Below, piece by piece: positions 1 to 59,902 of a stretch of DNA of 64,000 bases. Position 1 is the first letter of the stretch; every line of letters starts with the position of its first letter. The stretch comes from an uncultured Candidatus Saccharibacteria bacterium (GTDB lineage: Bacteria > Patescibacteriota > Doudnabacteria > UBA920). A program made the translations under genes and the position numbers. Location of the stretch: positions 4,325 to 68,324 of the forward strand of contig CAZEKH010000005.1 of NCBI GenBank assembly GCA_964512925.1, read 5' to 3'. Below the pieces are notes generated by a model. It had not been told where the DNA came from. It ran no database searches and saw only the letters and a program-made list of their open reading frames with translations.

Positions 1-864
1 GACGCGCTGGATAAACATCCAACTGTGTTTTCCAATATTTTTGTCAGTATGGTCAGGGTCGGGGATTTGGGCGGTAATTTGGACAAAAGTTTGGAATATT
101 TAAGCATCCAGCTGCACAGGGAAGCGGACTTAAAGAGCAAAGTCAAAGGCGCGATGATTTACCCGTCAGTCATTGTCGGGGCAATGATCGTGATAGGTGT
201 TTTGATGTCAATTTTTGTTTTACCCAACTTAACTTCAGTGTTTAAAGATTTTAAAACAGATTTGCCAGCAACCACCAGGGCGGTGATGGCTTTGGCTGAC
301 TTTATGAGCGCGCACGCGGTTTTGGCGATAGGCTCGATGATTGGAACTTTTGTGGGATTTTTTTTGTTTTTGCGCACCCAGTTGGGCCAGTTGGTTTTTG
401 ACAATGTGATGCTTCGTTTTCCTATCATAAATCCCATAGTAAAAAAAGTAAATTTGGCCAGGTTTTCCCGCATCTTGGGCTCGCTTTTAAAAAGCGGCAT
501 ACCCATTGTGCAGGGTTTGGAAGTATCCGCCGATTCTTTGGGTAATGTTTTGTATAAAAATCATTGCGCCAAGGCCGCTTTAAGCGTTAAGCTGGGAAAA
601 CCATTGGCAGAAAGTTTGGGCAGTAACACTTTGCTGTTTCCAGTTTTGGTATCGCAGATGCTTCAGGTAGGAGAAGAAAGCGGCACAGTGCAGGAAATAT
701 TGGAGCAACTGGCGGTGCACTACGAAGAAGAAGTGGATACGACCCTTCGCAATATGTCTTCCATAATAGAACCTTTGCTTTTGCTGGTCATCGGCGGGGT
801 GGTGGGGATTTTAGCTATGGCTTTGATCGCGCCGATATATAACATCAGCCAGAGCATTCAATAA
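1..864 (+). CDS. pilC: type IV pilus assembly platform protein, PilC/GspF family (5'-partial; frame is open to nt 1)
   Basis: ORF 25..864 continues in-frame to the window edge; polytopic membrane protein with a GspF-like C-terminal repeat; directly followed by pilM/pilN/pilO. Confidence 0.75.
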   Translation, partial: DALDKHPTVFSNIFVSMVRVGDLGGNLDKSLEYLSIQLHREADLKSKVKGAMIYPSVIVGAMIVIGVLMSIFVLPNLTSVFKDFKTDLPATTRAVMALADFMSAHAVLAIGSMIGTFVGFFLFLRTQLGQLVFDNVMLRFPIINPIVKKVNLARFSRILGSLLKSGIPIVQGLEVSADSLGNVLYKNHCAKAALSVKLGKPLAESLGSNTLLFPVLVSQMLQVGEESGTVQEILEQLAVHYEEEVDTTLRNMSSIIEPLLLLVIGGVVGILAMALIAPIYNISQSIQ

Positions 865-8472: not shown

Positions 8473-8490
8473 AGTTTTTCAATATAGTTT

Positions 8491-8528
8491 CCCTCCCCAA
8501 GAGTTGGGGAGGGTCAAGGGAGAGGTTG
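8491..8528. repeat. GC-rich nested palindromic element (CCCTCCCCAAGAGTTGGGGAGGG + TCAAGGGAGAGGTTG)
   Basis: perfect 8-bp inner inverted repeat; same family as 5855, 31889, 32284, 59848. Confidence 0.7.
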
Positions 8529-8728
8529 AATTAAAATTCAAATTTACGAATTAAACAAATTTGCAAATGGTTACAAATATTGAGATTAAAACAATAATAA
8601 TTATTTGTAATCATCTGTAAATTTGTCCACATTTGTATATTTGACCAATTTGTAACAATCAAAAACCCCCGCCTTTGGGGGCAAACTTCCATAATCTTAA
8701 GACATTTTTGGCAAAAAGTCAAATATTT

Positions 8729-21428: not shown

Positions 21429-21849
21429 TGAGAGTGTTTTTAATTGATATATCTTTTAGCAGACTTTTTTCAAAAGTTGCTTTCGTCGCGAAATTTAAGT
21501 ATTTTGAGCGAAAACTTTGAAAAAACGTAAGATATCGGAGTTATCGCTGAGGCTTTTTTCAGAAGTTTGCAGCCAAAATACTTAAATTGCAGTTGAAATG
21601 TACTTTTGAAAGAGGTCTAGTGTAAAGTTTTCGTAACTACTATGGATTTGTTAATTGGGTTTTGATTTTTTACAATTTCAAAATTTTGTAAAATATAAGC
21701 GCGCAAATACAATAAAAAAATTGAAATTATCAAGGTTAAAATGCAAAAAAAATAAACAAGTTTTTTAGTATTTTGTTTCATTAATCCGATATAAAGTAAG
21801 TACAGAAGTATTATACCACTTTTTTTGCCAGGCATACTTTTTAAAAGTA

Positions 21850-24725: not shown

Positions 24726-26027
24726 ATGCCGTATTTTGAGATTTTGAAAAAAGCAGAACTCACCCCAGTCCTCTCTTTAGAAAATAGAGGGAGTGATATA
24801 TTCCCCCCCTCTTTAAGCAAAGAGGGCGAAGGGGGAGTTTTGGGAGCTAGGACGGGCATCATCCATACCGCGCACGGGGATATAAAGACCCCGGCGTTTT
24901 TGCCTATTGGCACCAAAGGCGCGGTAAAGGCTGTGACGGCGGAGGAGCTGAAGTTTTGGGGCGCGGACATCATCCTTGCCAATACCTACCACCTTTGGCA
25001 GCGTCCGGGCGACGCTCTCATATATAAAGCCGGGGGGCTGCATAAATTTATGAACTGGCAAGGGCCTATCTTTACTGACTCCGGGGGGTTTCAGGTTTTC
25101 TCGCTCGCAAAAATGAGAAAAGTTTTAGAATTGGGCGTGCTGTTTCAGTTTGATTTAGACGGCAGGCAGGAACTTTTGTCGCCGGAAAAATCCGTTGATA
25201 TCCAAGCTAACTTAGGCAGCGACATCTGCCTCATACTGGATGATTTTCCGGGATATCCTTGGACTTATGAGCGAAGCAAAGAATCCATTGAGCTTACAAA
25301 CCGTTGGGCTGAAAGGGCGATAAAGGAGCATAAGAGAATAGTGACTGATGGCGACCCCATTAACCCCGGCCAAAAGCTGTGGGGGATAGTTCAGGGCGCA
25401 TCTTTTCCGGACTTAAGGGAAATGTCGGCTAAAGCAATGGTTCAGTTTGGATTTGAAGGCTTTGCCATTGGCGGCGTGGCCGTGGGCGAACCTCACGAGG
25501 AGATGATGAAAGCTGTGGAGGTTACCATACCGCATTTACCGGAAAATGCCCCAAAACATCTTTTGGGCGTCGGAACGCCTTTTGACATTGTTCAGGCAGT
25601 AGCGCGTGGCTGCGATACTTTTGACTGCGTGATCCCGACTAGGGAAGCTAGGCATGGAAGACTCTATATAAATAACAAATATCAAATTTCAAATAACAAA
25701 GCAGACAACCTCTCCCTTTCTCCCTCCCCTCATGAGGGGAGGGAAGGGGTGGGGTTGCAGTTTGAAGGCTATAGTACCATCAATATCTTCAACGAAAAGT
25801 TTAAAGAAGATTTTTCCACCATAGACGATCAGTGCGATTGCTATTTGTGCCAGAACCATACCAAGTCTTACCTTAGACATTTGTTTCAAACTGGCGAGCC
25901 TTTGGCGACAAGGCTTGCAACTATGCACAACCTGAAATTTTATTTAAACTTAATGGCTAAAATCAGGAAATCCATCCAATATGATTATTTTGATGAGATG
26001 GTCTTAAACTACAAAGAAATTAAATAG
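24726..26027 (+). CDS. tgt: queuine tRNA-ribosyltransferase carrying two inserted palindromic elements
   Basis: 433 aa; 'LANTYHL', 'DSGGFQV', 'GFAIGG', Zn site CxCxxC..H (DDQCDCYLCQNH...HL). Confidence 0.85.
   Translation: MPYFEILKKAELTPVLSLENRGSDIFPPSLSKEGEGGVLGARTGIIHTAHGDIKTPAFLPIGTKGAVKAVTAEELKFWGADIILANTYHLWQRPGDALIYKAGGLHKFMNWQGPIFTDSGGFQVFSLAKMRKVLELGVLFQFDLDGRQELLSPEKSVDIQANLGSDICLILDDFPGYPWTYERSKESIELTNRWAERAIKEHKRIVTDGDPINPGQKLWGIVQGASFPDLREMSAKAMVQFGFEGFAIGGVAVGEPHEEMMKAVEVTIPHLPENAPKHLLGVGTPFDIVQAVARGCDTFDCVIPTREARHGRLYINNKYQISNNKADNLSLSPSPHEGREGVGLQFEGYSTINIFNEKFKEDFSTIDDQCDCYLCQNHTKSYLRHLFQTGEPLATRLATMHNLKFYLNLMAKIRKSIQYDYFDEMVLNYKEIK
24757..24840. repeat. nested palindromic element inside tgt codons ~12-39 (CCCCCCCTCTTTAAGCAAAGAGGGCGAAGGGGGAG with outer arms AACTCACCCC/GGGGGAGTT)
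   Basis: ~84 nt, multiple of 3, encodes LTPVLSLENRGSDIFPPSLSKEGEGGVL absent from Tgt orthologs as remembered. Confidence 0.65.
25706..25757. repeat. nested palindromic element inside tgt (CAACCTCTCCC..CCCTCCCCTCATGAGGGGAGGG..AGGGGTGGGGTTG)
   Basis: perfect 8-bp inner arms, ~11-bp outer arms; lies in a ~36-aa segment extra relative to E. coli Tgt. Confidence 0.65.
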
Positions 26028-28161: not shown

Positions 28162-28467
28162 ATGAATGAAGGCAAAAACAAGATAACATCAGAAATTTTT
28201 TGGGAAAGTTTTCAAACCAAAAATCCTGAATTAAAAAAGTGCCTCGCAGACCTTGATGCTTATCTGCAAGTAGTTGATTTTGATCAAGTTTCAGAAATTG
28301 ACAAAGAAAGATTTGTGGAGCTAAAAACTTCCATAAGTCAATTTATTGCAGATAAAGAAATACAACACGATCGGGAGGAGTTTGTTGATACTTGGACAAA
28401 AGAATTTGAAGAATTACAACAAAAATATGGAACACCAAAGGTTGCGGCAACTTCAGCAGGAAATTAA
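28162..28467 (+). CDS. hypothetical protein
   Basis: 101-aa acidic ORF. Confidence 0.3.
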   Translation: MNEGKNKITSEIFWESFQTKNPELKKCLADLDAYLQVVDFDQVSEIDKERFVELKTSISQFIADKEIQHDREEFVDTWTKEFEELQQKYGTPKVAATSAGN

Positions 28468-29635
28468 ATATCCTATTTTAGTAAAGAAAAAAGAAAACCT
28501 GGCCTATTTGACTGGCGAGGTTTTTGATTTGCGGACACAGGAGTATCTTTTGGTAAAACCGCTGAAGTACGCGGATAAACGCGGAAGCTATACAGGGGTT
28601 GTTGGGTTTGGCAGCGGTCTGGAAAAAATTTCCTGGGCGCCAAAGTCGGACACTTTATACAACATCGGAAAATATGTGAAAGGCTATGAGAAGTTAAATC
28701 TTGAATATGGGTTTACTTTGGGGGAACATAAGTACATAAAAAGCAAGATCAAGAATTTGAGATTGCAGGTAAAAGTCCAGCCGGAACATTCTCCGGTGGA
28801 TGAGATAAGGCAGATAAAGACCCCGGATGAAATATTGAAGATTAAAAAATCAATGGAAATAGTTAAACAGGTATACAAGTATACTAGGAAGCAAGCGGTG
28901 AAGAGCGGGATGACGGAAGCAATTTTGGCAAAATACATTGAAAATTTGGGTTTAAAGTTGGGGGCAGGCGAGCTGGCGTTTCCGGCCATAGTAGCAAGCG
29001 GTAAGAACGCGGCAATGCCACACCACGTACCTACGAAAAAAAGGTTGAAGCCGGGTGAAAGCATTATTTTGGATTTTGGTTTTTTGGCCGGAGGCCAATC
29101 CGCCACTGGCGGAAAATCTTCATCTAACTACTGCAGCGATTTTACTCGTACGGTTTTTATCAAAAAAGTTCCAAAAAAGCTGGAAATAGCTTATAATCAG
29201 GTGGAGAAAGCTTATTTAGGGAGTATGGAATACATTAACTCCCCCAACCCCCGCCCGAACGCCGCAGGCGGGCAGGCCTCTTTGAAAAAGAGGGAAAAAT
29301 TCACCATCTCCTCCTCTTTGACAAAGAGGAGGCAGGGAGGAGTTCGTGCAGAGGGTGTTTACCAAAAATCAGTCGAGATTTTAGCCGAAAAAAAACTGGA
29401 TAAATATTTTATCCACTCGCTTGGCCATGGTACCGGCCTTGAGATCCACGAAAGGCCTTATTTGGGTCCAAAGTCAAAAGACATTTTAAAAGAAGGAATG
29501 GTTTTCAGTATAGAACCTGGCGTGTATTTTCCCGAGTATGGAGGGGTTCGGATAGAAGATTTGGTCTATATGGAAAATGGAAAAGTAAAAAAATTTATAG
29601 AAGTACCAACAGATTTAAAGTCTAATATTTTATGA
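28427..29635 (+). CDS. M24 family metallopeptidase (Xaa-Pro aminopeptidase-like) with in-frame palindromic insertion; start uncertain (ORF opens at 28346)
   Basis: 'HSLGHGTGLEIHERP', 'FSIEPGVY', 'VRIEDLV' M24 metal-ligand motifs. Confidence 0.65.
   Translation: MEHQRLRQLQQEIKYPILVKKKENLAYLTGEVFDLRTQEYLLVKPLKYADKRGSYTGVVGFGSGLEKISWAPKSDTLYNIGKYVKGYEKLNLEYGFTLGEHKYIKSKIKNLRLQVKVQPEHSPVDEIRQIKTPDEILKIKKSMEIVKQVYKYTRKQAVKSGMTEAILAKYIENLGLKLGAGELAFPAIVASGKNAAMPHHVPTKKRLKPGESIILDFGFLAGGQSATGGKSSSNYCSDFTRTVFIKKVPKKLEIAYNQVEKAYLGSMEYINSPNPRPNAAGGQASLKKREKFTISSSLTKRRQGGVRAEGVYQKSVEILAEKKLDKYFIHSLGHGTGLEIHERPYLGPKSKDILKEGMVFSIEPGVYFPEYGGVRIEDLVYMENGKVKKFIEVPTDLKSNIL
29237..29344. repeat. composite palindromic element inside the M24 peptidase gene (three hairpins: CCGCCCG..CGGGC, CCTCTTTGAAAAAGAGG, CCTCCTCTTTGACAAAGAGGAGG; outer arms AACTCCCCC/GGGAGGAGTT)
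   Basis: 108 nt (36 codons) encoding NSPNPRPNAAGGQASLKKREKFTISSSLTKRRQGGV. Confidence 0.65.
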
Positions 29636-31877: not shown

Positions 31878-31888
31878 TTGTTAAATTT

Positions 31889-31925
31889 CCTCTCCAAGTT
31901 TGGAGAGGGGTTAGGGGAGAGGTTG
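31889..31925. repeat. nested palindromic element (CCTCTCCAAGTTTGGAGAGG + GGTTAGGGGAGAGGTTG) whose 3' arm supplies the SD for the next gene
   Basis: GGGGAGAGG ends 7 nt before the ATG at 31930. Confidence 0.65.
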
Positions 31926-31929
31926 TTGT

Positions 31930-32277
31930 ATGAAACGCAAGCCATATTTAGTACATAACGCAAAAAATTTAAGAACGCGTTCAACTATATGGGAAACAAA
32001 ACTTTGGCAATATTTGAGAGGCGGTAGATTTTTTGATTATAAATTTAAAAGACAAGTTGCTATAGAAAAGTATATCGTAGATTTTTGTTGCAATGAAAAA
32101 AAGTTGATCATTGAGTTGGATGGGAGTGGATATCAATTTTCAGAAAAAGATAAAATTCGTGATAAATTTTTTGAAGGGCTAGGTTATAAAATCTTACGTA
32201 TTTGGAATAATGATATTGACAATAATTTTGACGGGGTTCCATTAAGAATTAAACAAAATTTCGATGAAAAAAAATAA
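31930..32277 (+). CDS. DUF559/Vsr-like endonuclease-domain protein
   Basis: 115 aa; 'FKRQVAIEKYIVDFCC...LIIELDGSGY...RDKFFEGLGYKILRIWNND' matches the DUF559 restriction-endonuclease-like fold pattern. Confidence 0.6.
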   Translation: MKRKPYLVHNAKNLRTRSTIWETKLWQYLRGGRFFDYKFKRQVAIEKYIVDFCCNEKKLIIELDGSGYQFSEKDKIRDKFFEGLGYKILRIWNNDIDNNFDGVPLRIKQNFDEKK

Positions 32278-32283: not shown

Positions 32284-32329
32284 ACAACCTCTCCAGGCCT
32301 CCGGCCACCCTCCCCAAACTTGGGGAGGG
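32284..32329. repeat. palindromic element (CAACCTCTCCAGGCCTCCGGCCA + CCCTCCCCAAACTTGGGGAGGGG) immediately 5' of nfo
   Basis: GGGGAGGGG arm lies ~9 nt upstream of the ATG giving MAVGCHVSAAGG. Confidence 0.65.
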
Positions 32330-32338
32330 GAAAGCGGT

Positions 32339-33388
32339 ATGGCTGTGGGTTGTCATGTTTCTGCGGCAGGCGGAGTGTGGAATGCGCCGAAGAATGCAAA
32401 GGATTTAAACTGCGAAACTTTCCAGATATTTACCCGTCCGCCTATGGGCGGACCTGCGCCGAAAATAGACCAGGAGGGAGTAGAGAAATTTAAGATGGAG
32501 ATGGAGAAGTATTATTCTTCATTCCATACAGAAGATGCAGAACCCCTCCCAACCTCCCCTTTGGTAAAGGGGAGGGGTAAGGTAGGTTCCCCCTCTTTTT
32601 CAAAGAGGGGGTTAGGGGGAGTTGGTTTTGTTGTTCACTGCCCGTACATTGTAAATTTTGGTTCAGCAAAGAAAACTACTTTTCACGGATCTATTTCTAT
32701 AGTTTCTGAAGAACTAAAAAGGGCTAATTCGCTTGGAGCTCGGTTTGTTATGACTCACTTAGGCAGCTTTAAGGATTTGGGCCAGGAAAAAGGTATGGTG
32801 CAGGCGCAAAAAGGTTTGGAAGAGGTTTTAAAAAAGTACGAAAGTTCTATAAAAAACAAACAGCCCTCCCAATTTCTTTTAGAGATAGCGGCAGGACAAG
32901 GTGAAGTTATAGGTGATACTTTTGAGGAACTGGCCGAGCTTATGGAGCCGCTAAAAAAATACAAAACTTTCGGGGGAATCTGCTTTGACACTCAGCATGC
33001 TTGGTCTTCGGGATATGATATAACCAAAAGCGAATGGGTAAAACAATTTGAGAAGACTATTGGCCTAAAATGGCTGCGGATGAGCCATATAAACGACTCT
33101 AAAGTTGATTTAGGCGGCAAAAAAGACCGTCACGAGCATATTGGCGAGGGGAAGATAGGAGAAAAGGGGATATATAATTTTATTCGAAATTTAAAATTGA
33201 ACCTGCCTGTCGGCAAGGCAGGGATTGAAGATTTAAACACCCTCTCTACCCGAAGCGGGTCCCTTCTCTCCCAGAAGGGAGAGATTAATAATGTTGTCTT
33301 TGACTCTTTTGCCTTGATTTTAGAAACTGAACATGATAAAGTGAAAACAGACATAAAAATCTTAAAAAAATTAAGGGAAAAAATATAA
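32339..33388 (+). CDS. nfo: endonuclease IV (AP endonuclease family 2) with two in-frame palindromic insertions; longer ORF opens at 32264
   Basis: 'VGCHVSAAGGV', 'ICFDTQHAWSSGYD', 'RMSHINDSK..DRHEHIGEGKIG', 'ALILETE' match Nfo metal-ligand blocks. Confidence 0.8.
   Translation: MAVGCHVSAAGGVWNAPKNAKDLNCETFQIFTRPPMGGPAPKIDQEGVEKFKMEMEKYYSSFHTEDAEPLPTSPLVKGRGKVGSPSFSKRGLGGVGFVVHCPYIVNFGSAKKTTFHGSISIVSEELKRANSLGARFVMTHLGSFKDLGQEKGMVQAQKGLEEVLKKYESSIKNKQPSQFLLEIAAGQGEVIGDTFEELAELMEPLKKYKTFGGICFDTQHAWSSGYDITKSEWVKQFEKTIGLKWLRMSHINDSKVDLGGKKDRHEHIGEGKIGEKGIYNFIRNLKLNLPVGKAGIEDLNTLSTRSGSLLSQKGEINNVVFDSFALILETEHDKVKTDIKILKKLREKI
32541..32625. repeat. double-hairpin element inside nfo (CCTCCCCTTTGGTAAAGGGGAGG and CCCCCTCTTTTTCAAAGAGGGGG)
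   Basis: 85 nt encoding PLPTSPLVKGRGKVGSPSFSKRGLGGVG between conserved KY..S and (I/V)xxH..Y(L/I)xN(L/F)G blocks. Confidence 0.7.
33201..33288. repeat. triple-hairpin element inside nfo (CCTGCC..GGCAGG, ACCCGAAGCGGGT, TCTCTCCCAGAAGGGAGAGA)
   Basis: ~88 nt encoding LPVGKAGIEDLNTLSTRSGSLLSQKGEI, extra relative to E. coli Nfo between GEGxIG and ILETI blocks. Confidence 0.6.
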
Positions 33389-33896: not shown

Positions 33897-33955
33897 AACA
33901 AAACCCCCTCCTAGCCTCCCCCATTTAGGGGAGGAAGGGTATAGGGGTTTTTGTT
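33897..33955. repeat. long imperfect palindromic element (AAAACCCCCTCCTAGCCTCCCCCATTTAGGGGAGGAAGGGTATAGGGGTTTT) followed by T-run; probable terminator
   Basis: inner CCTCCCCC/GGGGGAGG arms, outer AAAACCCC/GGGGTTTT arms. Confidence 0.55.
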
Positions 33956-35535: not shown

Positions 35536-37131
35536 ATGAATAGATTTTACCTTACAACCACCCTTCCATACGTAAATTCAGACCCTCACTTGGGGTTTGC
35601 TTTGGAAATGGTTTTGGCGGACACAATAGTTCGGTTTCAAAAATTGCAGGGTAAGGAAGTTTTTTTTAATACAGGCACAGACGAGCATGGTCTTAAGATA
35701 TATCAAAAAGCTTTAGAACGAGGTATAAGCCCAAAAGAGTACTGCGACGAATATGCAGAAAAATTTAAACAGCTGATGCCAGCTTTGGGGGTTTTGCCGG
35801 AGATACATTTCATACGCACCACGGACGAACACCATATAAAAGCCTGTCAGGAGTTTTGGAAACTGGTAGATAAAAATGGCTACATAGAAAAGAAAAATTA
35901 TAAGGTCAAATATTGCGTTGGCTGCGAGCTGGAAAAAACTGAAAGCGATCTGTCAGAAGAAGGAAAATGTTTAGTGCACCCGCATTTGGAAATAGAGATT
36001 CGCGAAGAGGAAAATTATTTTTTTAAGTTTAGCGCTTTCCAAAAACCGCTTTTAGAACTTTATGAAAAACAGCCGGATTTTGTTGTGCCGGATTTTCGGT
36101 TTAACGAGATTAGAGAGTTTGTAAAAAATGGACTTTCTGACTTTTCTATCTCGCGGCTTAAAGAAAAAATGCCCTGGGGCGTGCCTGTGCCGGGCGACGA
36201 CAACCACGTTATGTATGTCTGGTTTGACGCGCTTATAAACTATGTTTCAACGTTGGGTTGGCCAGAATACCACCCCTTTAATTCCCCTCCTATTTTAGGA
36301 GGGGAGGGCCAGAATGGCGGGGAGGTTAGTAATTTATTTCAAGAATTCTGGGGGACAAAAGAAAACCCTAACGGAATACAAATTGCAGGCAAGGACAACC
36401 TCCGTCAGCAGTCTGCTATGTGGCAGGCAATGCTTATGGCTGCGGGCCTGCCGAACAGTAAACAAATCATCATCCACGGCTTTATTAACTCCGGGGGGCA
36501 GAAAATGTCCAAATCTTTGGGCAATGTAGCGGATCCTTATAAAATAATTGAAGATTTAAAAATAAAAGGATTGAATAAACAACAGGCGACAGACGCGCTT
36601 CGGTATTATTTACTCAAAGAAATTCCTACTTTTGAAGACGGGGACTACACTTGGGATAGGTTTTTGGAAGTCTATAACTCCGACCTTGCCAACGGCATTG
36701 GCAACCTAACAAGTAGGATTTTGAAAATGAGCATAGCTAATTCAATTTTTCTCTCTCCAGGCGTGGAGAGAGTCCCCGACTCGTCCGCCAAAGCTTTAGC
36801 GGAGGAGGAAGGGGGAGAGAGGTCGCATGATAGTAATTCCCCAAACGATCAAAAAATTAAAGAGTTTATTTCCTCTTACCACTTAAAACTCGCTCTTGAA
36901 GAAATCTGGAAAGATATAAAATTCTGCGATGAATACATTCAAAAAGAAGAACCATTTAAAGTCGTTAAAGTAGACCCGGAAAAAGCAAAAAAGCAGATAG
37001 AGTTTTTACTTGGTAAACTAAAAGAGATAGCAGAAAACCTGCAGCCGTTTTTACCAGACACTTCCCAGCAAATAACAAACAGTTTAAAACCGCTTTCGGG
37101 AGAAATTCCACGGTTGTTTCCGAGGATATAA
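35536..37131 (+). CDS. metG: methionine--tRNA ligase (short form) with two in-frame palindromic insertions
   Basis: 531 aa; 'TTTLPYVNSDPHLG' HIGH-type motif, 'KMSKSLGNV'. Confidence 0.9.
   Translation: MNRFYLTTTLPYVNSDPHLGFALEMVLADTIVRFQKLQGKEVFFNTGTDEHGLKIYQKALERGISPKEYCDEYAEKFKQLMPALGVLPEIHFIRTTDEHHIKACQEFWKLVDKNGYIEKKNYKVKYCVGCELEKTESDLSEEGKCLVHPHLEIEIREEENYFFKFSAFQKPLLELYEKQPDFVVPDFRFNEIREFVKNGLSDFSISRLKEKMPWGVPVPGDDNHVMYVWFDALINYVSTLGWPEYHPFNSPPILGGEGQNGGEVSNLFQEFWGTKENPNGIQIAGKDNLRQQSAMWQAMLMAAGLPNSKQIIIHGFINSGGQKMSKSLGNVADPYKIIEDLKIKGLNKQQATDALRYYLLKEIPTFEDGDYTWDRFLEVYNSDLANGIGNLTSRILKMSIANSIFLSPGVERVPDSSAKALAEEEGGERSHDSNSPNDQKIKEFISSYHLKLALEEIWKDIKFCDEYIQKEEPFKVVKVDPEKAKKQIEFLLGKLKEIAENLQPFLPDTSQQITNSLKPLSGEIPRLFPRI
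36268..36327. repeat. palindromic element inside metG (CCCCTCCTATTTTAGGAGGGG) flanked by 8-bp direct repeat GCCAGAAT
   Basis: encodes FNSPPILGGEGQNGGEVS; GCCAGAAT at ~36261 and ~36309. Confidence 0.6.
36749..36822. repeat. composite element inside metG (CTCTCTCCAGGCGTGGAGAGAG, CCGCCAAAGCTTTAGCGG, G-rich tail AGGAGGAAGGGGGAGAGAGG)
   Basis: 74 nt encoding LSPGVERVPDSSAKALAEEEGGERS. Confidence 0.55.
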
Positions 37132-38163: not shown

Positions 38164-39219
38164 TTGTCAATGCTAATCGACACCCACGCTCACATTAACT
38201 TTAAAGCTTATGAAGACGACGCAGAGGAAGTTTTGCGCAGGGCTTTTGAGAGTGGGGTTATGGTTATAAACGTGGGGACGCAGTTGGACACTTCAGAGCA
38301 GTCTGTTAGGCTTGCTGAGAGGTACTCTAAAAAAAATATCCCTCCTCACTCCTCCCTTAATTTAAGGGAGGAAGCAGCACAATTACCCCCTCTTAAGGTA
38401 AGAGGGGGTCAGGGGGGTGATATTAAGGCGGTTTATTCCGTAGTTGGACTTCATCCCGTTCATACTTACTCCCAGCACGTAGACGAAGAAGAGAGTCATT
38501 TTAAAACGCGGGAAGAAAAGTTTGACTATGAGGCGTATAAAAAATTGGCACAAAATGATTTGGTGGTGGGGATTGGGGAATGTGGACTTGATTATTTTAG
38601 ATTGAAGATTGATGATTTAAGATTGCCAATAGAACAAATTAAAGAAAATCAGAAACAGGCATTTATGCAACAGGTGAGGCTGGCAAAGGAACTAAACAAA
38701 GCTTTGGTCATACACTGTAGGCCTTCGGAGGGGACGAGTGATGCGTATGAAGATATACTGGCAATTCTGGATTCAGAATTGCAAATTTCAAATATCAAAT
38801 TACAAAATTCAACAAACTCCGCTACACCCTCTACCCTAAACCCTAATCCCTTTCGTTTTGAGATCCACTCTTTTACTGGTACCCCCGACATAGTCCAAGA
38901 GTTTTTAAAGCGTGGCGCGTATGTGGGGCTAAATGGTATAATTACATTCGGAGACCGAAAATCAAAAAATATAGCGACGTCCGCCTCGGGCGGAGATAAG
39001 AGTGGAAACATGGACAATGTTTTGAAAACTGTCCCTTTAGACCGTATTGTCCTTGAAACTGACAGCCCGTATCTTACGCCAAAACCAAACCGGGGCAAAA
39101 GAAACGAGCCTTCCTATGTCCGTTTTGTTGCCGAACATATTGCTCAAGTAAAAAATATAGATTTTGCCCAAGTCGAAGAGCAAACCACAAAAAACGCAAT
39201 TAATTTGTTTAAGTTATAA
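38164..39219 (+). CDS. tatD: TatD-family metal-dependent DNase/hydrolase with in-frame palindromic insertion
   Basis: 351 aa; 'IDTHAHIN', 'VGLHP', 'IGECGLDY', 'ALVIHCR', 'LETDSPYL' TatD blocks. Confidence 0.8.
   Translation: MSMLIDTHAHINFKAYEDDAEEVLRRAFESGVMVINVGTQLDTSEQSVRLAERYSKKNIPPHSSLNLREEAAQLPPLKVRGGQGGDIKAVYSVVGLHPVHTYSQHVDEEESHFKTREEKFDYEAYKKLAQNDLVVGIGECGLDYFRLKIDDLRLPIEQIKENQKQAFMQQVRLAKELNKALVIHCRPSEGTSDAYEDILAILDSELQISNIKLQNSTNSATPSTLNPNPFRFEIHSFTGTPDIVQEFLKRGAYVGLNGIITFGDRKSKNIATSASGGDKSGNMDNVLKTVPLDRIVLETDSPYLTPKPNRGKRNEPSYVRFVAEHIAQVKNIDFAQVEEQTTKNAINLFKL
38335..38424. repeat. nested double-hairpin element inside tatD (CTCCCTTAATTTAAGGGAG, CCCCCTCTTAAGGTAAGAGGGGG; outer arms AATATCCCTCC/GGGGGGTGATATT)
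   Basis: 90 nt = 30 codons encoding KKNIPPHSSLNLREEAAQLPPLKVRGGQGGDIKA between RYS and VYSVVGLHP. Confidence 0.7.
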
Positions 39220-39223: not shown

Positions 39224-39691
39224 ATGGGAGAAAAACCAGATTTTTTAAGGACTGAATTTATGGCTGGGGCTAAAAGTCCAAGAGAACAGATTGAAAGAAC
39301 AATAGAACATCAGAAAGATTTGCTTTATAACATTAGTTTAAAGATTGCTGAAAAATCTGTTGATGGAAATAAAAGTACCTATGAATGGGTTCAAAATAGA
39401 CATAAATTTATATTCGAAAAAGAACTAAAATTAGCAAATACTTTTACACTTACGTCAGGGGATGAGAAATGGGAAAATCATTTAAGTACACCAATTGCTG
39501 GGCAACTTAGAGTTACAACCTTTAAAGGTGGAGAATATGCTCAAGTTGTGTCCTCCTATGGTTTTTTAAAAGTTCTGGATACACACATAACAAATTTAGA
39601 AACAGGAAAAACCGATGAGGAAATTAAAGAATATTTAATTGAAAAAGTTAAGGATATATTGGAGAATTGGGCATTGTTAATGCCAGAATAA
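39224..39691 (+). CDS. hypothetical protein (internal start of ORF 39164..39691, just after tatD stop)
   Basis: 155 aa. Confidence 0.35.
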   Translation: MGEKPDFLRTEFMAGAKSPREQIERTIEHQKDLLYNISLKIAEKSVDGNKSTYEWVQNRHKFIFEKELKLANTFTLTSGDEKWENHLSTPIAGQLRVTTFKGGEYAQVVSSYGFLKVLDTHITNLETGKTDEEIKEYLIEKVKDILENWALLMPE

Positions 39692-39774
39692 TTATAAAGT
39701 TAACTATTCAAAAAAAAATTAAAAACCCACTGCGCTGCGACGTGAAATTTAGGGACAAAACTTTTTTAATAAAA

Positions 39775-42393
39775 ATGTCAAGTAGATATAATCCACAGAA
39801 AATTGAAACTAAGTGGCCCTCCTACGCTAAAGCTACGAAGGGCAGGCAAAAGGTTTCTAAATATAAACCCCAGGAAATTGAACGTAAGTGGCAGTCACTG
39901 TGGTTTAAGAAGAAGCCTTTTTCTGCTGTGGAAAATAAGAGAAAGAAAAAATACATTTTAGTTGAGTTTCCTTACCCTTCGGGAGCGGGTTTACATATGG
40001 GGCACTTAAGGCCGTATGTGGCGGCAGATGTAACTGCTAGGTTTTTGCGCCTTACCGGGCATGAGGTTTTGTTTCCTATGGGCTGGGACGCGTTTGGGCT
40101 GCCGGCGGAAAACTACGCCATAAAAATGGGAGTGCACCCGACCATAACCACCAAGAAAAATGTGGCGAACGCAAAAAAACAAATGTTGTCGTGGGGGCTT
40201 TCTTTTGACTGGAAAAGGGAGATAAACACAACTGACCCTAACTACTACAAATGGACGCAGTGGTTGTTTTTGCAATTTTTCAAAAAAGGTTTGGCGTTTG
40301 AAAAAACCGGACTTATAAACTGGTGTCCAAAAGACAAGACAGGGCTTGCCAACGAAGAAGTAATAGACGGCAAATGCGAACGCTGCGGAACAGTAGTTGA
40401 AAAAAAAGAACTTCGCCAATGGTACCTAAAAATCACAGACTACGCTGAGAAATTATTAGCTGGTCTAAAGGATTTAACCGAATGGCCTGAAGCAGTCAAG
40501 CTTCAGCAGGAAAATTGGATAGGGAAAAAGACGGGCATAAACATTACATATGAGATTGAAGGTAAAAACAAAACAATAACTTGTTTTACCACGCGTCCTG
40601 ATACTAATTTTGGCGCAACTTTTATCGTTATTGGTCCTGAGCATCCTTTGATACAGCAAAATGAACTTGGTATTCAGAACTATGACGAAGTTAAAAGGTA
40701 TATCGAAAAAGCAAAGGAACAGACTGAGCAAGACAGGACTGCGGAGAATCGCAAAAAAACAGGAGTCTTTACTGGGCTATATTGCATAAATACTTTAAAT
40801 AACTACAAGATGCCTTTGTATGTAGCAGATTATGTTCTTGGAAATGTGGGCACAGGGGCTGTGGTCGGGGTGCCTGGGCACGACAAACGGGATTTTGAGT
40901 TTGCGCAAGTTTTTGGTATTGAAGTAAAAAGAGTTGTGCAAAAAAATGTAGACGATACTGGAATTATTGACCATATAGACAAGGTTCAAGAAGAAGAAGG
41001 GAAGATGGTAAATTCCGGTTTCTTAAATGGGCTTGATATTCACGAGGCCACTGAGAAAATAATGGACTATATGGAAAGTGAGGGTTATGGTAAAAGAGTT
41101 ACCAACTACAAACTCCGTGACTGGGTGTTTTCGCGCCAGCGTTACTGGGGAGAGCCGATACCTTTAATTCATTGCGATCCGCCAGCTGGCGGATGTGGCG
41201 TTGTGGCTGTACCGGAAAAAGATTTACCGGTTAAACTTCCAAATGTAAAAAAATACGAACCGACGGGAACAGGAGAGTCGCCGCTGGCTGGCATAGACAA
41301 ATGGGTAAATACCAAATGCCCGAAGTGCAAAGGCCCGGCTAAAAGGGAAACCAACACCATGCCTCAGTGGGCGGGCAGCTCGTGGTATTGGCTTAGGTAT
41401 TTGGACCCTAAAAATACCAAAACTTTTTCCGACATAAAAAAACAGAAATATTGGACACCGGTAGATGTGTATTTTGGCGGGATGGAACACACGACTTTAC
41501 ATTTGCTTTATTCACGTTTTTGGAATTTGTTTTTATACGACCAAAAGCTGGTTACAGAAAAAGAACCTTACAAGAGGCGTTTTCCGCACGGGATAATTTT
41601 GGGCCCAGATGGGGAAAAAATGTCTAAGAGTAGAGGCAACGTGGTGGATCCGCAGAAATTGGTCAAAGAATTTGGCGCTGACGCGGTACGTATGTATCAG
41701 CTGTTTTTAGGTCCTCACGGGGATATGATTGCTTGGAATGACCAGGGGATAGTCGGAGTGAAAAGGTTTTTGGATAGAGTTTGGAGTTGGGCACAGCAAT
41801 TGAATATTGAAGATATAAGATTGAAGATTGTAGACAGTGAGATAGTAGAACGGGAGATAAACAAACTGGTTAAGAAAATCACTGAGGACTTGGAAGCAAT
41901 GCGGTTTAATACCTGTATTTCGGCTTTTATGTCGTTTTTAAATGAAGTCAAAGACGAGCAAGTGTCTTTAGAAACAGTTAGAAAGTTTTTGATTCTTTTG
42001 AGCCCGTTTGCGCCGCATATTGCTGAAGAACTACTTGAGAGAGTTAGAGAGTTAGAGAGTAAGAGGGTGAGTAGATCAGTTAATCAGACAATCAGTAAAT
42101 CAGAAAGTCAGAAAGTCAAAACAAAACTCCCTCCAACCCCCTCTTTGTCAAAGAGGGGGAGCAAGGGGGAGTTCGCAGAGTGGCCTCAGTGGGACGAGAG
42201 TAAAATTTTAGAAGCTACAGCAGAGATCATCGTCCAGGTTAACGGCAAAGTCAAAGGCAAGGTAGTTGTGCCAAACCAAAGCAGTGAAGAAGTGGTAAAA
42301 GAAGCTATGCTGAAACTCCCGCAGTTTTCGTCTCTTGGTGAAATAAAAAGAACAATCTATGTGCCCAATAGACTTATTAACTTAGTTATTTAG
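39775..42393 (+). CDS. leuS: leucine--tRNA ligase; start uncertain (ORF opens at 39667)
   Basis: 'PYPSGAGLHMGHLRPY' HIGH motif, 'GEKMSKSRGNVVDP' KMSKS, CP1 editing domain, C-terminal 'QVNGKVKGKVVV'. Confidence 0.9.
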   Translation: MSSRYNPQKIETKWPSYAKATKGRQKVSKYKPQEIERKWQSLWFKKKPFSAVENKRKKKYILVEFPYPSGAGLHMGHLRPYVAADVTARFLRLTGHEVLFPMGWDAFGLPAENYAIKMGVHPTITTKKNVANAKKQMLSWGLSFDWKREINTTDPNYYKWTQWLFLQFFKKGLAFEKTGLINWCPKDKTGLANEEVIDGKCERCGTVVEKKELRQWYLKITDYAEKLLAGLKDLTEWPEAVKLQQENWIGKKTGINITYEIEGKNKTITCFTTRPDTNFGATFIVIGPEHPLIQQNELGIQNYDEVKRYIEKAKEQTEQDRTAENRKKTGVFTGLYCINTLNNYKMPLYVADYVLGNVGTGAVVGVPGHDKRDFEFAQVFGIEVKRVVQKNVDDTGIIDHIDKVQEEEGKMVNSGFLNGLDIHEATEKIMDYMESEGYGKRVTNYKLRDWVFSRQRYWGEPIPLIHCDPPAGGCGVVAVPEKDLPVKLPNVKKYEPTGTGESPLAGIDKWVNTKCPKCKGPAKRETNTMPQWAGSSWYWLRYLDPKNTKTFSDIKKQKYWTPVDVYFGGMEHTTLHLLYSRFWNLFLYDQKLVTEKEPYKRRFPHGIILGPDGEKMSKSRGNVVDPQKLVKEFGADAVRMYQLFLGPHGDMIAWNDQGIVGVKRFLDRVWSWAQQLNIEDIRLKIVDSEIVEREINKLVKKITEDLEAMRFNTCISAFMSFLNEVKDEQVSLETVRKFLILLSPFAPHIAEELLERVRELESKRVSRSVNQTISKSESQKVKTKLPPTPSLSKRGSKGEFAEWPQWDESKILEATAEIIVQVNGKVKGKVVVPNQSSEEVVKEAMLKLPQFSSLGEIKRTIYVPNRLINLVI
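42036..42173. repeat. composite insertion in leuS 3' region: tandem GAGAGTTA and AATCAG/AAGTCAG repeats followed by nested palindrome AACTCCCTCC..CCCCCTCTTTGTCAAAGAGGGGG..GGGGGAGTT
   Basis: encodes ERVRELESKRVSRSVNQTISKSESQKVKTKLPPTPSLSKRGSKGE between conserved APHIAEEL and WPxWDE blocks. Confidence 0.65.
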
Positions 42394-48538: not shown

Positions 48539-48620
48539 AACATATATCCTTGGCCTTTGATTTTTAAGCTTTTTCAGATTTTACCTATTTTTTTAAGTGC
48601 TTTTTATCTCAGTCTCTGTT

Positions 48621-48644
48621 GTCATTCCCGCGAAAGCGGGAATC
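48621..48644. repeat. TCCCG/CGGGA hairpin element (GTCATTCCCGCGAAAGCGGGAATC)
   Basis: 8-bp perfect stem. Confidence 0.5.
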
Positions 48645-48704
48645 TAAGTTTGAGAGAATTTTCGGTACTAACAGATATAAACTGTTTTTCTGTGGAAAAC
48701 TGCA

Positions 48705-48733
48705 TTTGACAAGTTTTTGCTAGGGGTATAATA
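48705..48733 (+). promoter_or_regulatory. near-consensus sigma70 promoter (TTGACA-N15/17-TATAAT)
   Basis: gcatTTGACAagtttttgctaggggTATAATat. Confidence 0.55.
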
Positions 48734-48739
48734 TATATA

Positions 48740-48893
48740 AAATCTATGCAAAGAAATTTTTCCCACAACCTCATTATTTCTCTCCCGGTCGTCAAGACCT
48801 GGGTGTTTAAAATGCGGGGTAGTGTGGGAAAGAAAAGATAACAGTAGTATAAGTAAAGTTTCCACACCATACCCCGCAAAGAGCGGGTTTTTT
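48740..48893 (+). ncRNA. candidate ~150-nt small RNA between the consensus promoter and an intrinsic terminator (identity unknown)
   Basis: no credible ORF or SD; TTTCCCACAACC pairs GGTAGTGTGGGAAA with alternative partner TTTCCACACC; terminator CCCCGC-AAAGA-GCGGG + T7 at 48871..48893. Confidence 0.35.
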
Positions 48894-49010: not shown

Positions 49011-49128
49011 ACCCCCTCTCCCGTGTGGGAGAGGGTTGGGGTGAGGTTTCAGCGATGGTAATAAAACCAAGGTTTGTTATTATCAAACATTATTACCTCA
49101 CCCTAGCCCTCTCCGTGATCGGAGAGGG
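49011..49128. repeat. symmetric composite of two palindromic elements in opposite orientation around an AT-rich inner hairpin
   Basis: CCCTCTCCCGTGTGGGAGAGGG+TTGGGGTGAGGT ... ACCTCACCCTAGC+CCTCTCCGTGATCGGAGAGG. Confidence 0.65.
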
Positions 49129-49475
49129 AATCTGAAAAAGGCTTGAAATATTTATTATTTGTTCTTTAAAACTTAACACCAACCGCCCACAAAAGTTTTT
49201 CCAACAATTGATTTACTGATTATCAGATATTCTGATCAACTTGGAACTTCTTTTGTGTGCAGTCCGTTTGTTTTTATTTCTTTTCCTCCCGCTGGTCGGG
49301 ACGGACACAAGATGGAATCTCATTCCAAAGCACATAAAAACAAAAAAGGCACACGAAAGTTTGGGCAGATCTTGGCTTACCAGCCACTAAAAAATCCCGT
49401 TTTCAAAATTCGGGATTCTGCCCATAGCTATCCGGGCCGCGCAATTTGCTGGCCCATTCGTTCGAGGAGGAAAAA

Positions 49476-49679: not shown

Positions 49680-49808
49680 CCAGCAACAGACTTAAAGAGC
49701 AAGTACTTGGGTAGTACCCTGCAATTATACCGCTCTTCAGGTCTTAACCCCGGGGTTCACCAGCTGACCACCATCGGCTAGTGGATCCCGGGCCACTCAA
49801 TTTTTTCT

Positions 49809-49846
49809 TCCTCTCCGTTATCGGAGAGGGTAGGGTGAGGTAACGG
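49809..49846. repeat. palindromic element (CCTCTCCGTTATCGGAGAGG + GTAGGGTGAGGTAACGG)
   Basis: same family, reverse orientation. Confidence 0.65.
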
Positions 49847-50169: not shown

Positions 50170-50179
50170 CAGGTTTTTA

Positions 50180-59847: not shown

Positions 59848-59884
59848 CAACCTCTCCCTGGCCCTCCCCAGGTCTTGGGGAGGG
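59848..59884. repeat. nested palindromic element (CAACCTCTCCCTGG + CCCTCCCCAGGTCTTGGGGAGGG) 18 nt upstream of fusA
   Basis: perfect 8-bp inner inverted repeat. Confidence 0.7.
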
Positions 59885-59902
59885 AAACTATAAAGCAAAT
59901 CT

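Follow-up and report, generated by a model that had tools for sequence, protein, structure and literature searches.

The question raised by this locus is why a gene for tRNA guanosine(34) transglycosylase (Tgt) carries two strong palindromes within its reading frame, and whether these belong to the enzyme or to a repeat that happens to occupy it. The stretch of DNA analysed (64 kb, hereafter the window) comes from a Doudnabacteria-type CPR bacterium, and the initial annotation had read the ORF at 24726..26027 as Tgt with two in-frame palindromic insertions. Profile score, orthologue alignment and folding bore this out. The gene and its two elements are:

24726..26027, + strand: tgt, encoding tRNA guanosine(34) transglycosylase of 433 aa (TIGR00430 profile), host of two elements
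24756..24842, no strand: tgt site-1 element, type B, double hairpin, residues ~13-38, composed of arm GAACTCACCCC, hairpin 1, hairpin 2 (CCCCTCTTT/AAAGAGGG) and arm GGGGGAGTT
25706..25757, no strand: tgt site-2 element, type A, 17 codons in a variable linker (residues 315-347), composed of arm CAACCTCTCCC, hairpin TCCCTCCCCT-CATG-AGGGGAGGGA and arm GGGGTGGGGTTG

The ORF scored 443 bits against the TIGR00430 Tgt profile (cutoff 306.75) and matched Tgt structures in the PDB at E 1e-101. An AF2 model built with 120 orthologues (pLDDT 80.6, pTM 0.84), taken in place of an earlier, unusable run with 34 orthologues (pLDDT 48.6), was matched by Foldseek to Z. mobilis TGT with a TM score of 0.90 and an rmsd of 2.6 Å, satisfying the criterion of a TIM-barrel fold with a C-terminal zinc subdomain. 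Residues D118, D172/D173, D300, C370, C372, C375 and H401 showed no variation across the 120 orthologues, and the catalytic Asp and CxCxxC...H positions aligned with those of the Z. mobilis and E. coli enzymes; the catalytic role of D118, D172/D173 and D300 and the zinc-binding role of CxCxxC...H are those which we take to be established in the Tgt literature. Judged by sequence comparison and the predicted structure, the ORF encodes a bona fide bacterial Tgt, the enzyme being otherwise intact apart from the inserts. Two independent SRA assemblies (L002 and L003) matched the window identically over 4.7 and 3.7 kb including tgt, and the insert-bearing sequence is therefore no assembly artefact.

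Insert 1 had been assigned to codons 12-39 with the peptide LTPVLSLENRGSDIFPPSLSKEGEGGVL; the peptide was correct, but the codon span is 24759-24842, 2 nt from the 24757..24840 given originally. At this site 100/120 orthologues have a linker of 6 aa, a net gain of 26 codons for the window gene, and a further 18 have 11-42 aa with unrelated palindromic sequences; in L084 the site is occupied by a single-hairpin version. The palindrome of insert 2 lies exactly where it had been reported (25706-25757), but the extra length relative to E. coli is ~32 aa rather than ~36 aa, as measured over the segment from GRLYI to GY, which exceeds that of both E. coli and Z. mobilis (query 316/351 = E. coli 281/284). 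Only 17 codons of this excess are palindrome and 10-12 aa more are a linker common to Doudnabacteria Tgt; on the evidence of the alignment, site 2 owes some of its extra length to an older linker found across the lineage. Across orthologues the length of site 2 ranges from 5 to 99 aa, and in other lineages the same two sites hold different palindromes. Both segments had been described as strong nested palindromes and they beat shuffled sequences in both folding tests, with -41.0 and -39.2 kcal/mol, z ~ -3.9 and 0/200 shuffles as good in one, and z -5.0 (insert 1) and -7.2 (insert 2) in the other. The insertion reading would have been refuted had these residues been conserved Tgt sequence, which they are not: the full form of insert 1 occurs in window Tgt alone among the 120 orthologues, and insert 2 in one other (P0020/L085). 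Alignment thereby supports both as insertions relative to solved Tgt structures and most close orthologues, with the frame kept. The dispersed family described below (at least 16 window copies, many in other genes), the other palindromes at the same tgt sites elsewhere and the older linker at site 2 were absent from the initial annotation.

Orthologue alignment and structural model placed both inserts, which most orthologues lack, at the tips of beta-hairpins. Residues 15-37 at site 1 lie between strands E4-9 and E42-48 and residues 324-342 at site 2 at the tip of the hairpin E312-320/E345-353, both with pLDDT <50; the insert residues themselves are predicted to be disordered (pLDDT 29-46). 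Between the window and L085 the site-2 element is identical at 47/52 positions, as against 48% identity at tgt third codon positions, so this element is not decaying neutrally. The 25 nearest Tgt cores were all 86-88% identical in a star-like arrangement, which gave no basis for polarising insert gains and losses.

The arm and hairpin motifs of the two tgt inserts recur at 14 or more further sites in the window, which holds at least 16 related nested palindromes, each an outer arm pair around one or two C-rich/G-rich hairpins. Nine or ten of these copies sit within the reading frames of housekeeping genes (M24 peptidase, nfo, metG, tatD and leuS). The elements measure ~36-90 nt and are G/C-rich, with a polypyrimidine left and a polypurine right hairpin arm, and the outer arms are of two types, CAACCTCTCC.../...GGAGAGGTTG (type A) and AACTCCCCC.../...GGGGGAGTT (type B). 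The copies outside tgt, together with a nuclease-like gene that two of them enclose, are:

8488..8530, - strand: type-A half element (arm and hairpin) in the typA leader, with ~55 nt in common with the fusA leader copy
29275..29344, no strand: type-B element in frame in the M24 peptidase gene (28346..29635)
31886..31925, no strand: type-A half element (hairpin and arm GGGGAGAGGTTG) directly upstream of the DUF559 gene
31930..32277, + strand: DUF559 gene (PF04480, Vsr/EDxHD-like endonuclease fold), candidate cognate enzyme, bracketed by type-A elements with arms inward
32285..32330, no strand: type-A element (arm CAACCTCTCC, small hairpin and CCCTCCCC hairpin) on the downstream side of DUF559, in the nfo leader
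32540..32625, no strand: type-B double-hairpin element in frame in nfo, with the peptide EPLPTSPLVKGRGKVGSPSFSKRGLGGV, homologous to the tgt site-1 peptide
33202..33284, no strand: palindromic insert of 26 aa near the nfo C-terminus
33900..33951, no strand: intergenic type-A-like element followed by a T run (terminator-like)
36270..36325, no strand: element in frame in metG (35536..37131), with the peptide HPFNSPPILGGEGQNGGE
38336..38423, no strand: type-B double-hairpin element in frame in a TatD-family gene (38164..39219)
42124..42173, no strand: type-B single-hairpin element in frame in leuS (39667..42393), with the peptide KLPPTPSLSKRGSKGEF
49012..49130, no strand: intergenic doublet of hairpin and arm GGGGTGAGGT, a 47-nt spacer, and arm ACCTCACCC and hairpin, with the layout of the DUF559 bracket without a gene
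49808..49843, no strand: intergenic type-A half element
59848..59887, + strand: type-A half element in the fusA leader

The tgt inserts aligned over their full length with the copies in nfo, tatD and leuS, in the typA and fusA leaders and in the DUF559 flanks, and stems were kept by paired changes between copies (CCCTCCCC/GGGGAGGG, CCCTCTCC/GGAGAGGG and CCTCCTC/GAGGAGG). The peptides PPSLSKEGEGGV of tgt, SPSFSKRGLGGV of nfo and TPSLSKRGSKGE of leuS are homologous; since this holds for the element peptides of tgt and nfo, the two are read in the same frame relative to the element. In the double-hairpin type-B copies (tgt, nfo and tatD) two of the three sense frames contain stops, and each copy is read in an open frame. 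Orthologous nfo proteins begin at ATG 32339, after the leader element. The nfo (32540..32625) and M24 inserts are missing in L001; in L085 the same sites are filled by different elements, that in nfo being shorter. No target-site duplication could be established from filled and empty sites in L001, L086 and L084, the flanks being too diverged, and no clean empty/filled pair of sites at high nucleotide identity was found, so that movement is not demonstrated. Copies are quite divergent from one another, and clustering by genome-wide subfamily rather than by locus is already partly seen. The downstream flank of DUF559 has the same arm and stem as the tgt site-2 element. A CRISPR or TIGR array was ruled out, the copies being dispersed and not arrayed.

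In 760 kb of Doudnabacteria-like loci, 79 hairpins with a pyrimidine-rich and a purine-rich arm were counted where shuffled sequences led us to expect 0.3, and the same count in 654 kb of other bacteria gave 0. Long ORFs contained 65 of the 79 (82%), at an ORF coverage of 0.88; with Doudnabacteria genomes ~88% coding, most copies fall in genes. By these counts, it is in a subset of Doudnabacteria (Patescibacteria/CPR) that the repeat family has multiplied.

We therefore favour, with a probability of roughly 0.8, the reading that the tgt inserts are copies of a dispersed palindromic repeat family tolerated in frame in surface loops, their translation being inferred from the intact frames. To survive, a copy would need a length divisible by three and a host frame that runs stop-free through the element, and the P/S/L...G/E/K/R peptide that the element encodes would have to sit in a tolerant surface loop; both steps are inferred. 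In Tgt two turns would be tolerant, that of the N-terminal beta-hairpin and that of the hairpin preceding the zinc subdomain. Transcription and translation of the inserts would then yield disordered loops on a Tgt that is otherwise intact, as with the Rickettsia palindromic elements (RPE), although no transcript or peptide data are available.

RPE are the closest analogue. In a published summary, RPE (Ogata et al. 2000 Science 290:347) are described as palindromes dispersed in a small gene-dense genome and lying in frame in unrelated housekeeping genes, with a recognisable peptide per family, insertion points that fit the fold (surface loops) and no transposase encoded by the element (PMC10969869). 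The Doudnabacteria elements satisfy the corresponding criteria of many dispersed copies in one genome and of in-frame position in unrelated genes with a family peptide (twice each in tgt and nfo, and in M24 peptidase, metG, tatD and leuS; translation inferred); that of surface insertion points is satisfied as well, shown for Tgt only, where the rest of the model is intact. They differ in host (Patescibacteria as opposed to Alphaproteobacteria) and in size (RPE ~100-150 bp) and, unlike RPE, have G/C-rich polypyrimidine/polypurine hairpins inside an arm pair, are modular (one or two inner hairpins) and strike the same gene sites repeatedly with different subfamilies. On the strength of a host outside Rickettsiales and a different length and composition, rather than of a direct comparison with the RPE-1..10 consensus sequences, they are classed as an analogue of RPE and not a member. 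A bracketed candidate enzyme gene of the DUF559 kind has, to our knowledge, not been described for RPE.

The palindromes might instead be RNA or DNA signals selected in place, with the peptides as a by-product: mRNA stabilisers or processing sites, pause or attenuation sites, leader or Shine-Dalgarno elements, terminators, or a REP/BIME-like protein site. Such a role would fit the conservation of the site-2 element far above that of neutral sites and the paired changes in the stems, and also the position of the same element in the typA and fusA leaders, in both 18 nt from the ATG, the GGGGAGGGG of the element that precedes the nfo start and the resemblance of 33900-33951 to a terminator. However, orthologues at equal distance vary freely in whether a given site is occupied, which is unexpected for a required signal, and sense and antisense folding were near equal across elements except at site 2 (-37.8 vs -31.6), giving no RNA-strand signature. 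In a terminator scan the tgt copies were not terminator-like, and an Rfam scan of the window returned four tRNAs only, with no family matching the elements. A signal function could hold for some intergenic copies but leaves those within genes unexplained, and we regard it as unlikely. An origin of each hairpin at its own locus, by template switching, quasi-palindrome mutation or slippage in tolerant loops and without any single family, would account for the diversity of copies, the differing loops and the unseen target-site duplication. It is nevertheless very improbable, given that distant loci have arms, stems and even flanking bases in common (tgt site 2 and the DUF559 downstream flank; the ~55 nt of typA and fusA), that the same architecture occurs in contigs of 33-65% GC and that the hairpins were lacking from the other bacteria searched.

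The alternative that the inserts are adaptive, lineage-specific Tgt loops, for instance for contact with a partner or tRNA, the palindromic DNA being incidental, draws on their position at exposed hairpin tips and on the repeated occupation of both sites within the clade. We give it hardly any weight: sequence and length at both sites vary between close relatives, most of which have no site-1 insert, the same DNA motif occurs in unrelated genes and intergenic DNA, and the loops are predicted to be disordered. Removal or skipping of the segments before the mature protein is made, by intron, intein or ribosomal bypass, was considered because the in-gene copies fold at -37 to -45 kcal/mol. Strong hairpins of this sort within coding sequence are associated with bypassing, yeast mitochondria and their GC-rich 'byp' elements being the case in point. 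The frame is nonetheless kept and stop-free in all in-gene copies inspected, 9-10 from the window as well as those of L085 and L084, while most elements have stops in other frames; bypass or splicing would need neither property, which makes this the explanation we can least credit. An intein was rejected at 17-28 aa as far too short, and an intron as no intron family was detected (Rfam).

The DUF559 gene is the sole nuclease-like gene tied to the repeats, and its bracket consists of inward-facing copies of the tgt site-2 element. Its product scored 115.2 bits against Pfam PF04480 (cutoff 20.6, E 1.7e-33), and the profile matched 3HRL (E 2e-28) and the I-Bth0305I domain 3R3P (E 5.5e-4); no transposase, integrase or RAYT (Y1_Tnp) family was found among the 56 window ORFs, which represent 64 kb of this genome only. 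The bracket was also found in L001, L005, L006, L028 and L085 (six genomes with the window), and arm type tracks DUF559 lineage, with CAACCTCTCC in the window, L006, L028 and L085 and CCACCTCCC in L001 and L005; the arms covary (GGTTGCA/TGCAACC vs GGTGGTA/TACCACC). The flanks are all the copies seen in L001 and L005, with zero hairpins elsewhere in 12-21 kb. More generally, flanking inverted repeats were present at 29/59 testable DUF559 loci (49%) as against 23/357 control ORFs (6%; Fisher p 9e-15), and those inspected had the same hairpin-plus-arm layout in contigs spanning the GC range given above. We found no paper linking DUF559 to palindromic repeats, save for the enrichment of DUF559 proteins among predicted inversion targets, that is, genes between inverted repeats (PMC9881135).

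We tentatively infer, at somewhat less than even odds and without activity data, that type-A elements are the cognate DNA of this small DUF559 (Vsr/EDxHD-like) endonuclease. By nicking or cutting the repeat in its folded or cruciform form, the enzyme would drive copying, homogenisation or movement of the repeat in the style of RAYT and REP/REPIN. In the window protein E-x-D-G-x-x-H is not intact: its sequence is ELDGSGY, and a 3-aa gap stands where four homologues and 3HRL have the His; the motif is intact in the homologues of L001, L005, L006 and L085. Without the conserved His of ELDGxxH, the window protein may be inactive. No DUF559 gene with type-B arms was seen, which leaves tgt site 1 without a candidate enzyme. 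An initial test of DUF559 presence against hairpin count (p 1e-5) was partly circular, the flanks having been counted; with DUF559 flanks removed, hairpin density in DUF559-bearing loci was only weakly higher (p 0.035). A strict blastn-short search with the DUF559-flanking repeat, an insensitive test, gave mostly zero further copies per locus, and zero in the window too, and was not relied on. Copies in the window that strict blastn misses are a mark of divergence within the family.

Likenesses to REP/REPIN-RAYT systems (PMC3116915, PMC3337134) include short imperfect palindromes, inverted doublets with a spacer (49012-49130 is REPIN-like), a small gene lying between repeats of its own type, an apparent covariation of repeat type and gene lineage, and a mostly conserved chromosomal position of the bracketed gene in related genomes. 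REPs are extragenic, whereas the Doudnabacteria copies lie predominantly in ORFs. The GTAG/CGTC tag at the palindrome foot that is a feature of REPs (PMC3733652) was present within 8 nt in 2/18 hairpins only, so this criterion was not met, and RAYT is an HUH Y1 transposase as opposed to the PD-(D/E)XK/Vsr-like DUF559 protein bracketed here, the chemistry of which would differ. Vsr-like (EDxHD) homing endonucleases such as I-Bth0305I (PMC3239194, PMC2677866) have the E-x-D-G-x-x-H motif in common with the DUF559 profile, and in both cases a small nuclease gene is found in association with selfish DNA. Enzymes of the I-Bth0305I type have a single cognate site for homing and are encoded in group I introns or between the halves of split inteins, unlike the DUF559 gene, which is free-standing between palindromes that are also dispersed, with no intron or intein present. 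Bacterial MITEs and small intragenic repeats (ERIC, Correia/NEMIS, BOX and cyanobacterial MITEs; PMC10969869) are likewise short and non-autonomous with inverted-repeat ends and occasional in-frame fusion. MITEs are usually IS-derived, mostly intergenic and accompanied by target-site duplications, whereas neither an IS parent nor duplications were found for the Doudnabacteria elements.

Essential genes carrying 'selfish' palindromes in frame have for 25 years been a curiosity of Rickettsia, and we know of no enzyme identified behind such palindromes. That the phenomenon recurs at a comparable or greater density in CPR/Patescibacteria, an unrelated lineage with reduced genomes for which no paper describing in-frame palindromic repeats was found, suggests a general outcome where a palindromic repeat spreads in a genome nearly without intergenic space. 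With DUF559, a very common domain whose function is unknown, there is now a candidate enzyme open to test. Its gene is repeat-bracketed in many bacteria, which could explain both the function of DUF559 and the maintenance of the repeats. A more doubtful extension is that nested C-rich/G-rich palindromes form a widespread class, so far without a name, whose cognate enzymes are the small free-standing DUF559 endonucleases. Enzyme and repeat would then form a second RAYT-REPIN-like partnership of distinct mechanism, expanded into the coding sequence of gene-dense CPR genomes, where it would continually remodel the surface loops of Tgt, aminoacyl-tRNA synthetases, repair nucleases and other essential enzymes. 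In CPR MAGs, protein length variation, low-complexity 'P..G.G' loops and mis-called starts can be repeat copies and not lineage-specific domains. The predicted tryptic peptides across the tgt inserts are GSDIFPPSLSK and EGEGGVLGAR, and ADNLSLSPSPHEGR.

The product of tgt scored 443 bits against TIGR00430 (cutoff 306.75) and matched the E. coli and Z. mobilis Tgt structures with E-values of 1e-101 to 1e-98. In the structure alignments, residue 41 aligned to E. coli residue 13, giving 28 additional N-terminal residues, and residues 316/351 aligned to E. coli 281/284, giving approximately 32 additional residues ahead of the zinc site. The initial annotation had proposed in-frame palindromic insertions in both segments; the first peptide was recovered at codons 12–39, with coordinates 2 nt off, and the second palindrome proved to be placed exactly. 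The features concerned are:

24726–26027, + strand, tgt, encoding 433 amino acids
24756–24842, tgt site 1, type-B element
25706–25757, tgt site 2, type-A element

Both segments are indeed palindromic, folding far better than shuffled sequences in two tests (−41.0 and −39.2 kcal/mol at z about −3.9 in the first, where none of 200 shuffles did as well; z −5.0 and −7.2 in the second), and contained inverted-repeat arms, for example TCCCTCCCCTCA/TGAGGGGAGGGA with 100% complementarity. Since two independent SRA assemblies were nucleotide-identical to the window across the tgt region, an assembly artefact was ruled out as the source of the inserts.

The proteins nearest to the window Tgt were from Candidatus Doudnabacteria and Patescibacteria MAGs. 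In an alignment of 120 orthologues (74–84% identical overall, with a core identity of 86–88% for the nearest 25), the FEILK-ARTG linker comprised 6 amino acids in 100 sequences and 11–42 in 18, the latter with quite different sequences (HPLPNPPPKGEG..., SSDNAPTGRGVPSGRG..., DSPATISKEIEAGKS...). Site 1 is therefore a net insert of 26 codons. The GRLYI-to-GY linker varied from 5 to 99 amino acids (mode 13–15) and is about 3 in Firmicutes and E. coli; site 2 is thus a 52-nt palindrome within a linker already 10–12 amino acids longer clade-wide. These linker lengths demonstrate that both segments are insertions relative to orthologues, as had been suggested.

An AF2 model of Tgt based on the 120 sequences (pLDDT 80.6, pTM 0.84; an earlier model from 34 sequences was unusable) superposed on Z. 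mobilis TGT in Foldseek with a target-normalised TM score of 0.90 and an rmsd of 2.6 Å. Its two longest low-confidence stretches, residues 15–37 and 324–342, correspond to the two inserts, which connect the strands of the beta-hairpins E4-9/E42-48 and E312-320/E345-353. On the basis of this model the inserts are exposed and probably disordered loops. The catalytic aspartates and the CxCxxC...H zinc ligands were invariant in the alignment, and the enzyme core looks intact. The inserts thus lie at hairpin tips of an otherwise conserved enzyme.

Insert DNA from seven other fetched tgt loci (L004, L006, L009, L013, L016, L018 and L028) was also strongly palindromic and carried the same motifs. Locus L084 had a single-hairpin form of the site-1 element at the same position, and L085 a related hairpin that was missed by the public gene call. 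In L085 (9040–10307) the public Tgt call (P0020) begins at an internal ATG, with the true start about 70 nt upstream; the skipped 5' part holds the site-1 element, and two further hairpin elements (8924–8946 and 9003–9025) lie in the leader. The site-2 elements of L085 and the window were identical at 47 of 52 positions, against 66–75% identity for the surrounding tgt core and only 48% at third codon positions. From this high similarity despite near-saturated synonymous sites, we infer that copies are constrained or kept homogeneous rather than drifting junk, possibly because other copies serve as templates for re-copying or gene conversion, or because genomes exchange them.

The tgt inserts were identified as copies of a dispersed, lineage-restricted palindromic family. 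The motif CCCTCCCC occurred 10 times in the window (1.5 expected), and relatives of the site-1 hairpin motif were present at 32590 and 42138. Scanning for G/C-rich hairpins and inspecting the candidates gave at least 16 elements, aligning as two subfamilies with identical architecture:

Type A: left arm CAACCTCTCCC; a spacer, then CCCTC(C/T)CC-loop-GG(G/A)GAGGG; right arm GGGGTG(A/G)GGTTG
Type B: left arm (G)AACTCCCYCC; one or two hairpins of the CCCCCTCTTT/AAAGAGGGGG kind; right arm GGGGGAGTT

Half elements consisting of one arm and a hairpin were present too. Copies inside genes were found in tgt (two), nfo (two, with one further copy in the leader), metG, leuS, an M24 peptidase gene and a TatD-family gene; intergenic copies flanked a DUF559 gene, occupied the leaders of typA and fusA, and lay at 33900, at 49808 and, as a doublet, at 49012–49130. 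The inserts keep frame and avoid stops: the reading frame was kept by all in-gene copies in the window, and of the three sense frames of the double-hairpin type-B copies only one is free of stops, the one that the host gene reads. Homologous element peptides appear as PPSLSKEGEGGV in Tgt, SPSFSKRGLGGV in Nfo and TPSLSKRGSKGE in LeuRS. Different genomes hold different family members at the tgt, nfo and M24 sites; in syntenic comparison the nfo and M24 inserts were missing from L001, and in L085 both sites were occupied as in the window by inserts of different sequence and length. The M24 peptidase (28346–29635) has an additional 11-amino-acid insert, LAGGQSATGGKSS, missing in L001 and L085.

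The typA (8488–8530, − strand) and fusA (59848–59887) leaders have about 55 nt in common, a type-A half element followed by AAACTATA, and in both GGGGAGGG ends exactly 18 nt ahead of the ATG; the two genes may share a regulatory leader, as opposed to each having received an insertion by chance. The nfo ORF is listed from 32264, and orthologues begin at ATG 32339 (MAVGCHV). With that start the element at 32285–32330 belongs to the leader and supplies, with GGGGAGGGG, the sole Shine-Dalgarno-like motif ahead of the ATG; the presence of a repeat copy can therefore cause a start codon to be miscalled.

A census across the fetched loci counted hairpins whose left arm is C-rich, made up of pyrimidines only and at least 7 nt long.

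Hairpin census
Doudnabacteria-like loci: 760 kb, 79 hairpins, 0.3 expected from shuffles
Other bacteria, fetched with the same Tgt query: 654 kb, 0 hairpins, 0.0 expected from shuffles

Long ORFs contained 65 of the 79 (82%), with an ORF coverage of 88% in these loci. The family has expanded in a lineage-specific manner, without avoidance of coding sequence. Its distribution was patchy: the window had 18 hairpins, 20 kb of L085 had 13, and about 20 other Doudnabacteria loci had none by this criterion.

An Rfam search gave no family matching the elements, and a terminator scan did not indicate terminator-like tgt copies. Sense and antisense strands folded about equally, hence there is no RNA-strand signature. 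The tgt inserts are too short for an intein, and the strict conservation of an open, uninterrupted frame speaks against both splicing and ribosomal bypass. The elements lacked REP-type GTAG/CGTC tags, and none of the 56 ORFs of the window contained a transposase, integrase or RAYT domain. Rickettsia palindromic elements (RPE; PMC10969869) represent functionally the same phenomenon; the window elements occur in a different phylum and are shorter, modular and G/C-rich. They are classed as an analogue and not as members of the RPE families or of REP/RAYT, since defining features were lacking when tested. Our literature search found no report of in-frame palindromic elements in CPR/Patescibacteria.

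The single nuclease-like gene associated with the repeats (31930–32277) encodes a DUF559 protein (PF04480, E 1.7e-33). A profile of this protein and four homologues matched 3HRL, an endonuclease-like protein of N. gonorrhoeae (E 2e-28), and 3R3P, the catalytic domain of I-Bth0305I (E 5.5e-4), a Vsr-like homing endonuclease (PMC3239194, PMC3424549). Because it has Tyr and a 3-residue gap where the four homologues and 3HRL carry the His of ELDGxxH, the window protein may, judging from sequence, be catalytically dead. The gene is bracketed by repeats:

Upstream: hairpin, then GGGGAGAGGTTG
Downstream: CAACCTCTCC, then hairpin

The downstream half shares both its arm and its stem with the tgt site-2 element. 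Homologues in L006, L028 and L085 had the same bracket, and in L001 and L005 both arms were altered in concert (GGTGGTA/TACCACC). The doublet at 49012–49130 has the bracket layout with a 47-nt spacer in place of the gene. Its position is the GlyRS/M24 peptidase interval in five related genomes; in the window it is found between the M16 peptidase gene and nfo.

Scanning metagenomes with an alignment of the five proteins provided 80 additional DUF559 loci. For each gene tested, an inverted repeat (z>4) was sought between the two 160-nt stretches that flank it upstream and downstream.

Flanking inverted repeats
DUF559 genes with enough flank: 29/59 (49%)
Control ORFs, same loci: 23/357 (6.4%)

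The difference was significant (Fisher p 9e-15). The flank repeats inspected, examples only, had the same hairpin-plus-arm layout on contigs of 33–65% GC, often with nearly the same sequence (CCCTCTCC-loop-GGAGAGGG beside GGGGTGAGGT). The clearest transposon-like cassette seen was in L145 (4880–5480), a metagenomic DUF559 gene between 117-nt, about 93% identical terminal inverted repeats, each including a CCCTCTCCC.../...GGGAGAGGG palindrome. In an independent published screen, DUF559 proteins were over-represented, with an odds ratio of 14, among the predicted targets of programmed inversion, meaning genes flanked by inverted repeats (PMC9881135). RAYT-REP partnerships were defined by such a pattern of a gene flanked by repeats (PMC3337134). 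We found no paper tying DUF559 to a repeat family. The tgt finding is of moderate interest; what would surprise a specialist is the association with DUF559, provided that it holds.

We infer that the inserts are translated as loops and that survival of a copy depends on a length of 3n, an open frame and a tolerant loop, a filter that would explain 'hot spots' of insertion. More speculatively, copying might be initiated by a DUF559 nuclease acting on an extruded arm-hairpin-arm structure; a circularised 'hairpin-arm-gene-arm-hairpin' cassette would create exactly an arm-hairpin-arm junction. Alternatively, DUF559 could be a small mobile gene targeting palindromes already present. Loci bearing DUF559 had only weakly more hairpins when its own flanks were excluded (p 0.035), and none of the DUF559 genes in the loci examined had type-B arms.

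Directly 5' of the leuS element (42090–42125) is a heptad-like coding repeat, AATCAGN x5–6 (peptide VNQTISKSESQKVKTK), and A-rich short-period repeats also precede tgt site 2 (25668–25700) and its counterparts in L084, L085 and L086; such repeats may be an older insertion layer or a target preference. Ribosomal protein S7 (58685–59269; 194 amino acids), on which the 148-position Pfam profile is spread across residues 6–183, may also be insert-bearing. The PNPase gene (22368–24641) encodes a Gly/Ser/Arg-rich C-terminal tail (24500–24641; SGGSRGGFGSRPGGHSRGGFGSRPSGPRPPRRDY). A 2.2-kb region without long ORF or Rfam hit (48540–50790) contains the repeat doublet, the half element at 49808–49843 and three long, perfect or near-perfect AT-rich palindromes (50180–50234, 50262–50295 and 50421–50465) adjoining tRNA-Pro (50569–50642). 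Between the EamA transporter and response-regulator genes lies an AT-rich pair of 34-nt inverted repeats (21492–21588) with 79% complementarity and a separation of 29 nt; it has no relation to the G/C-rich family.
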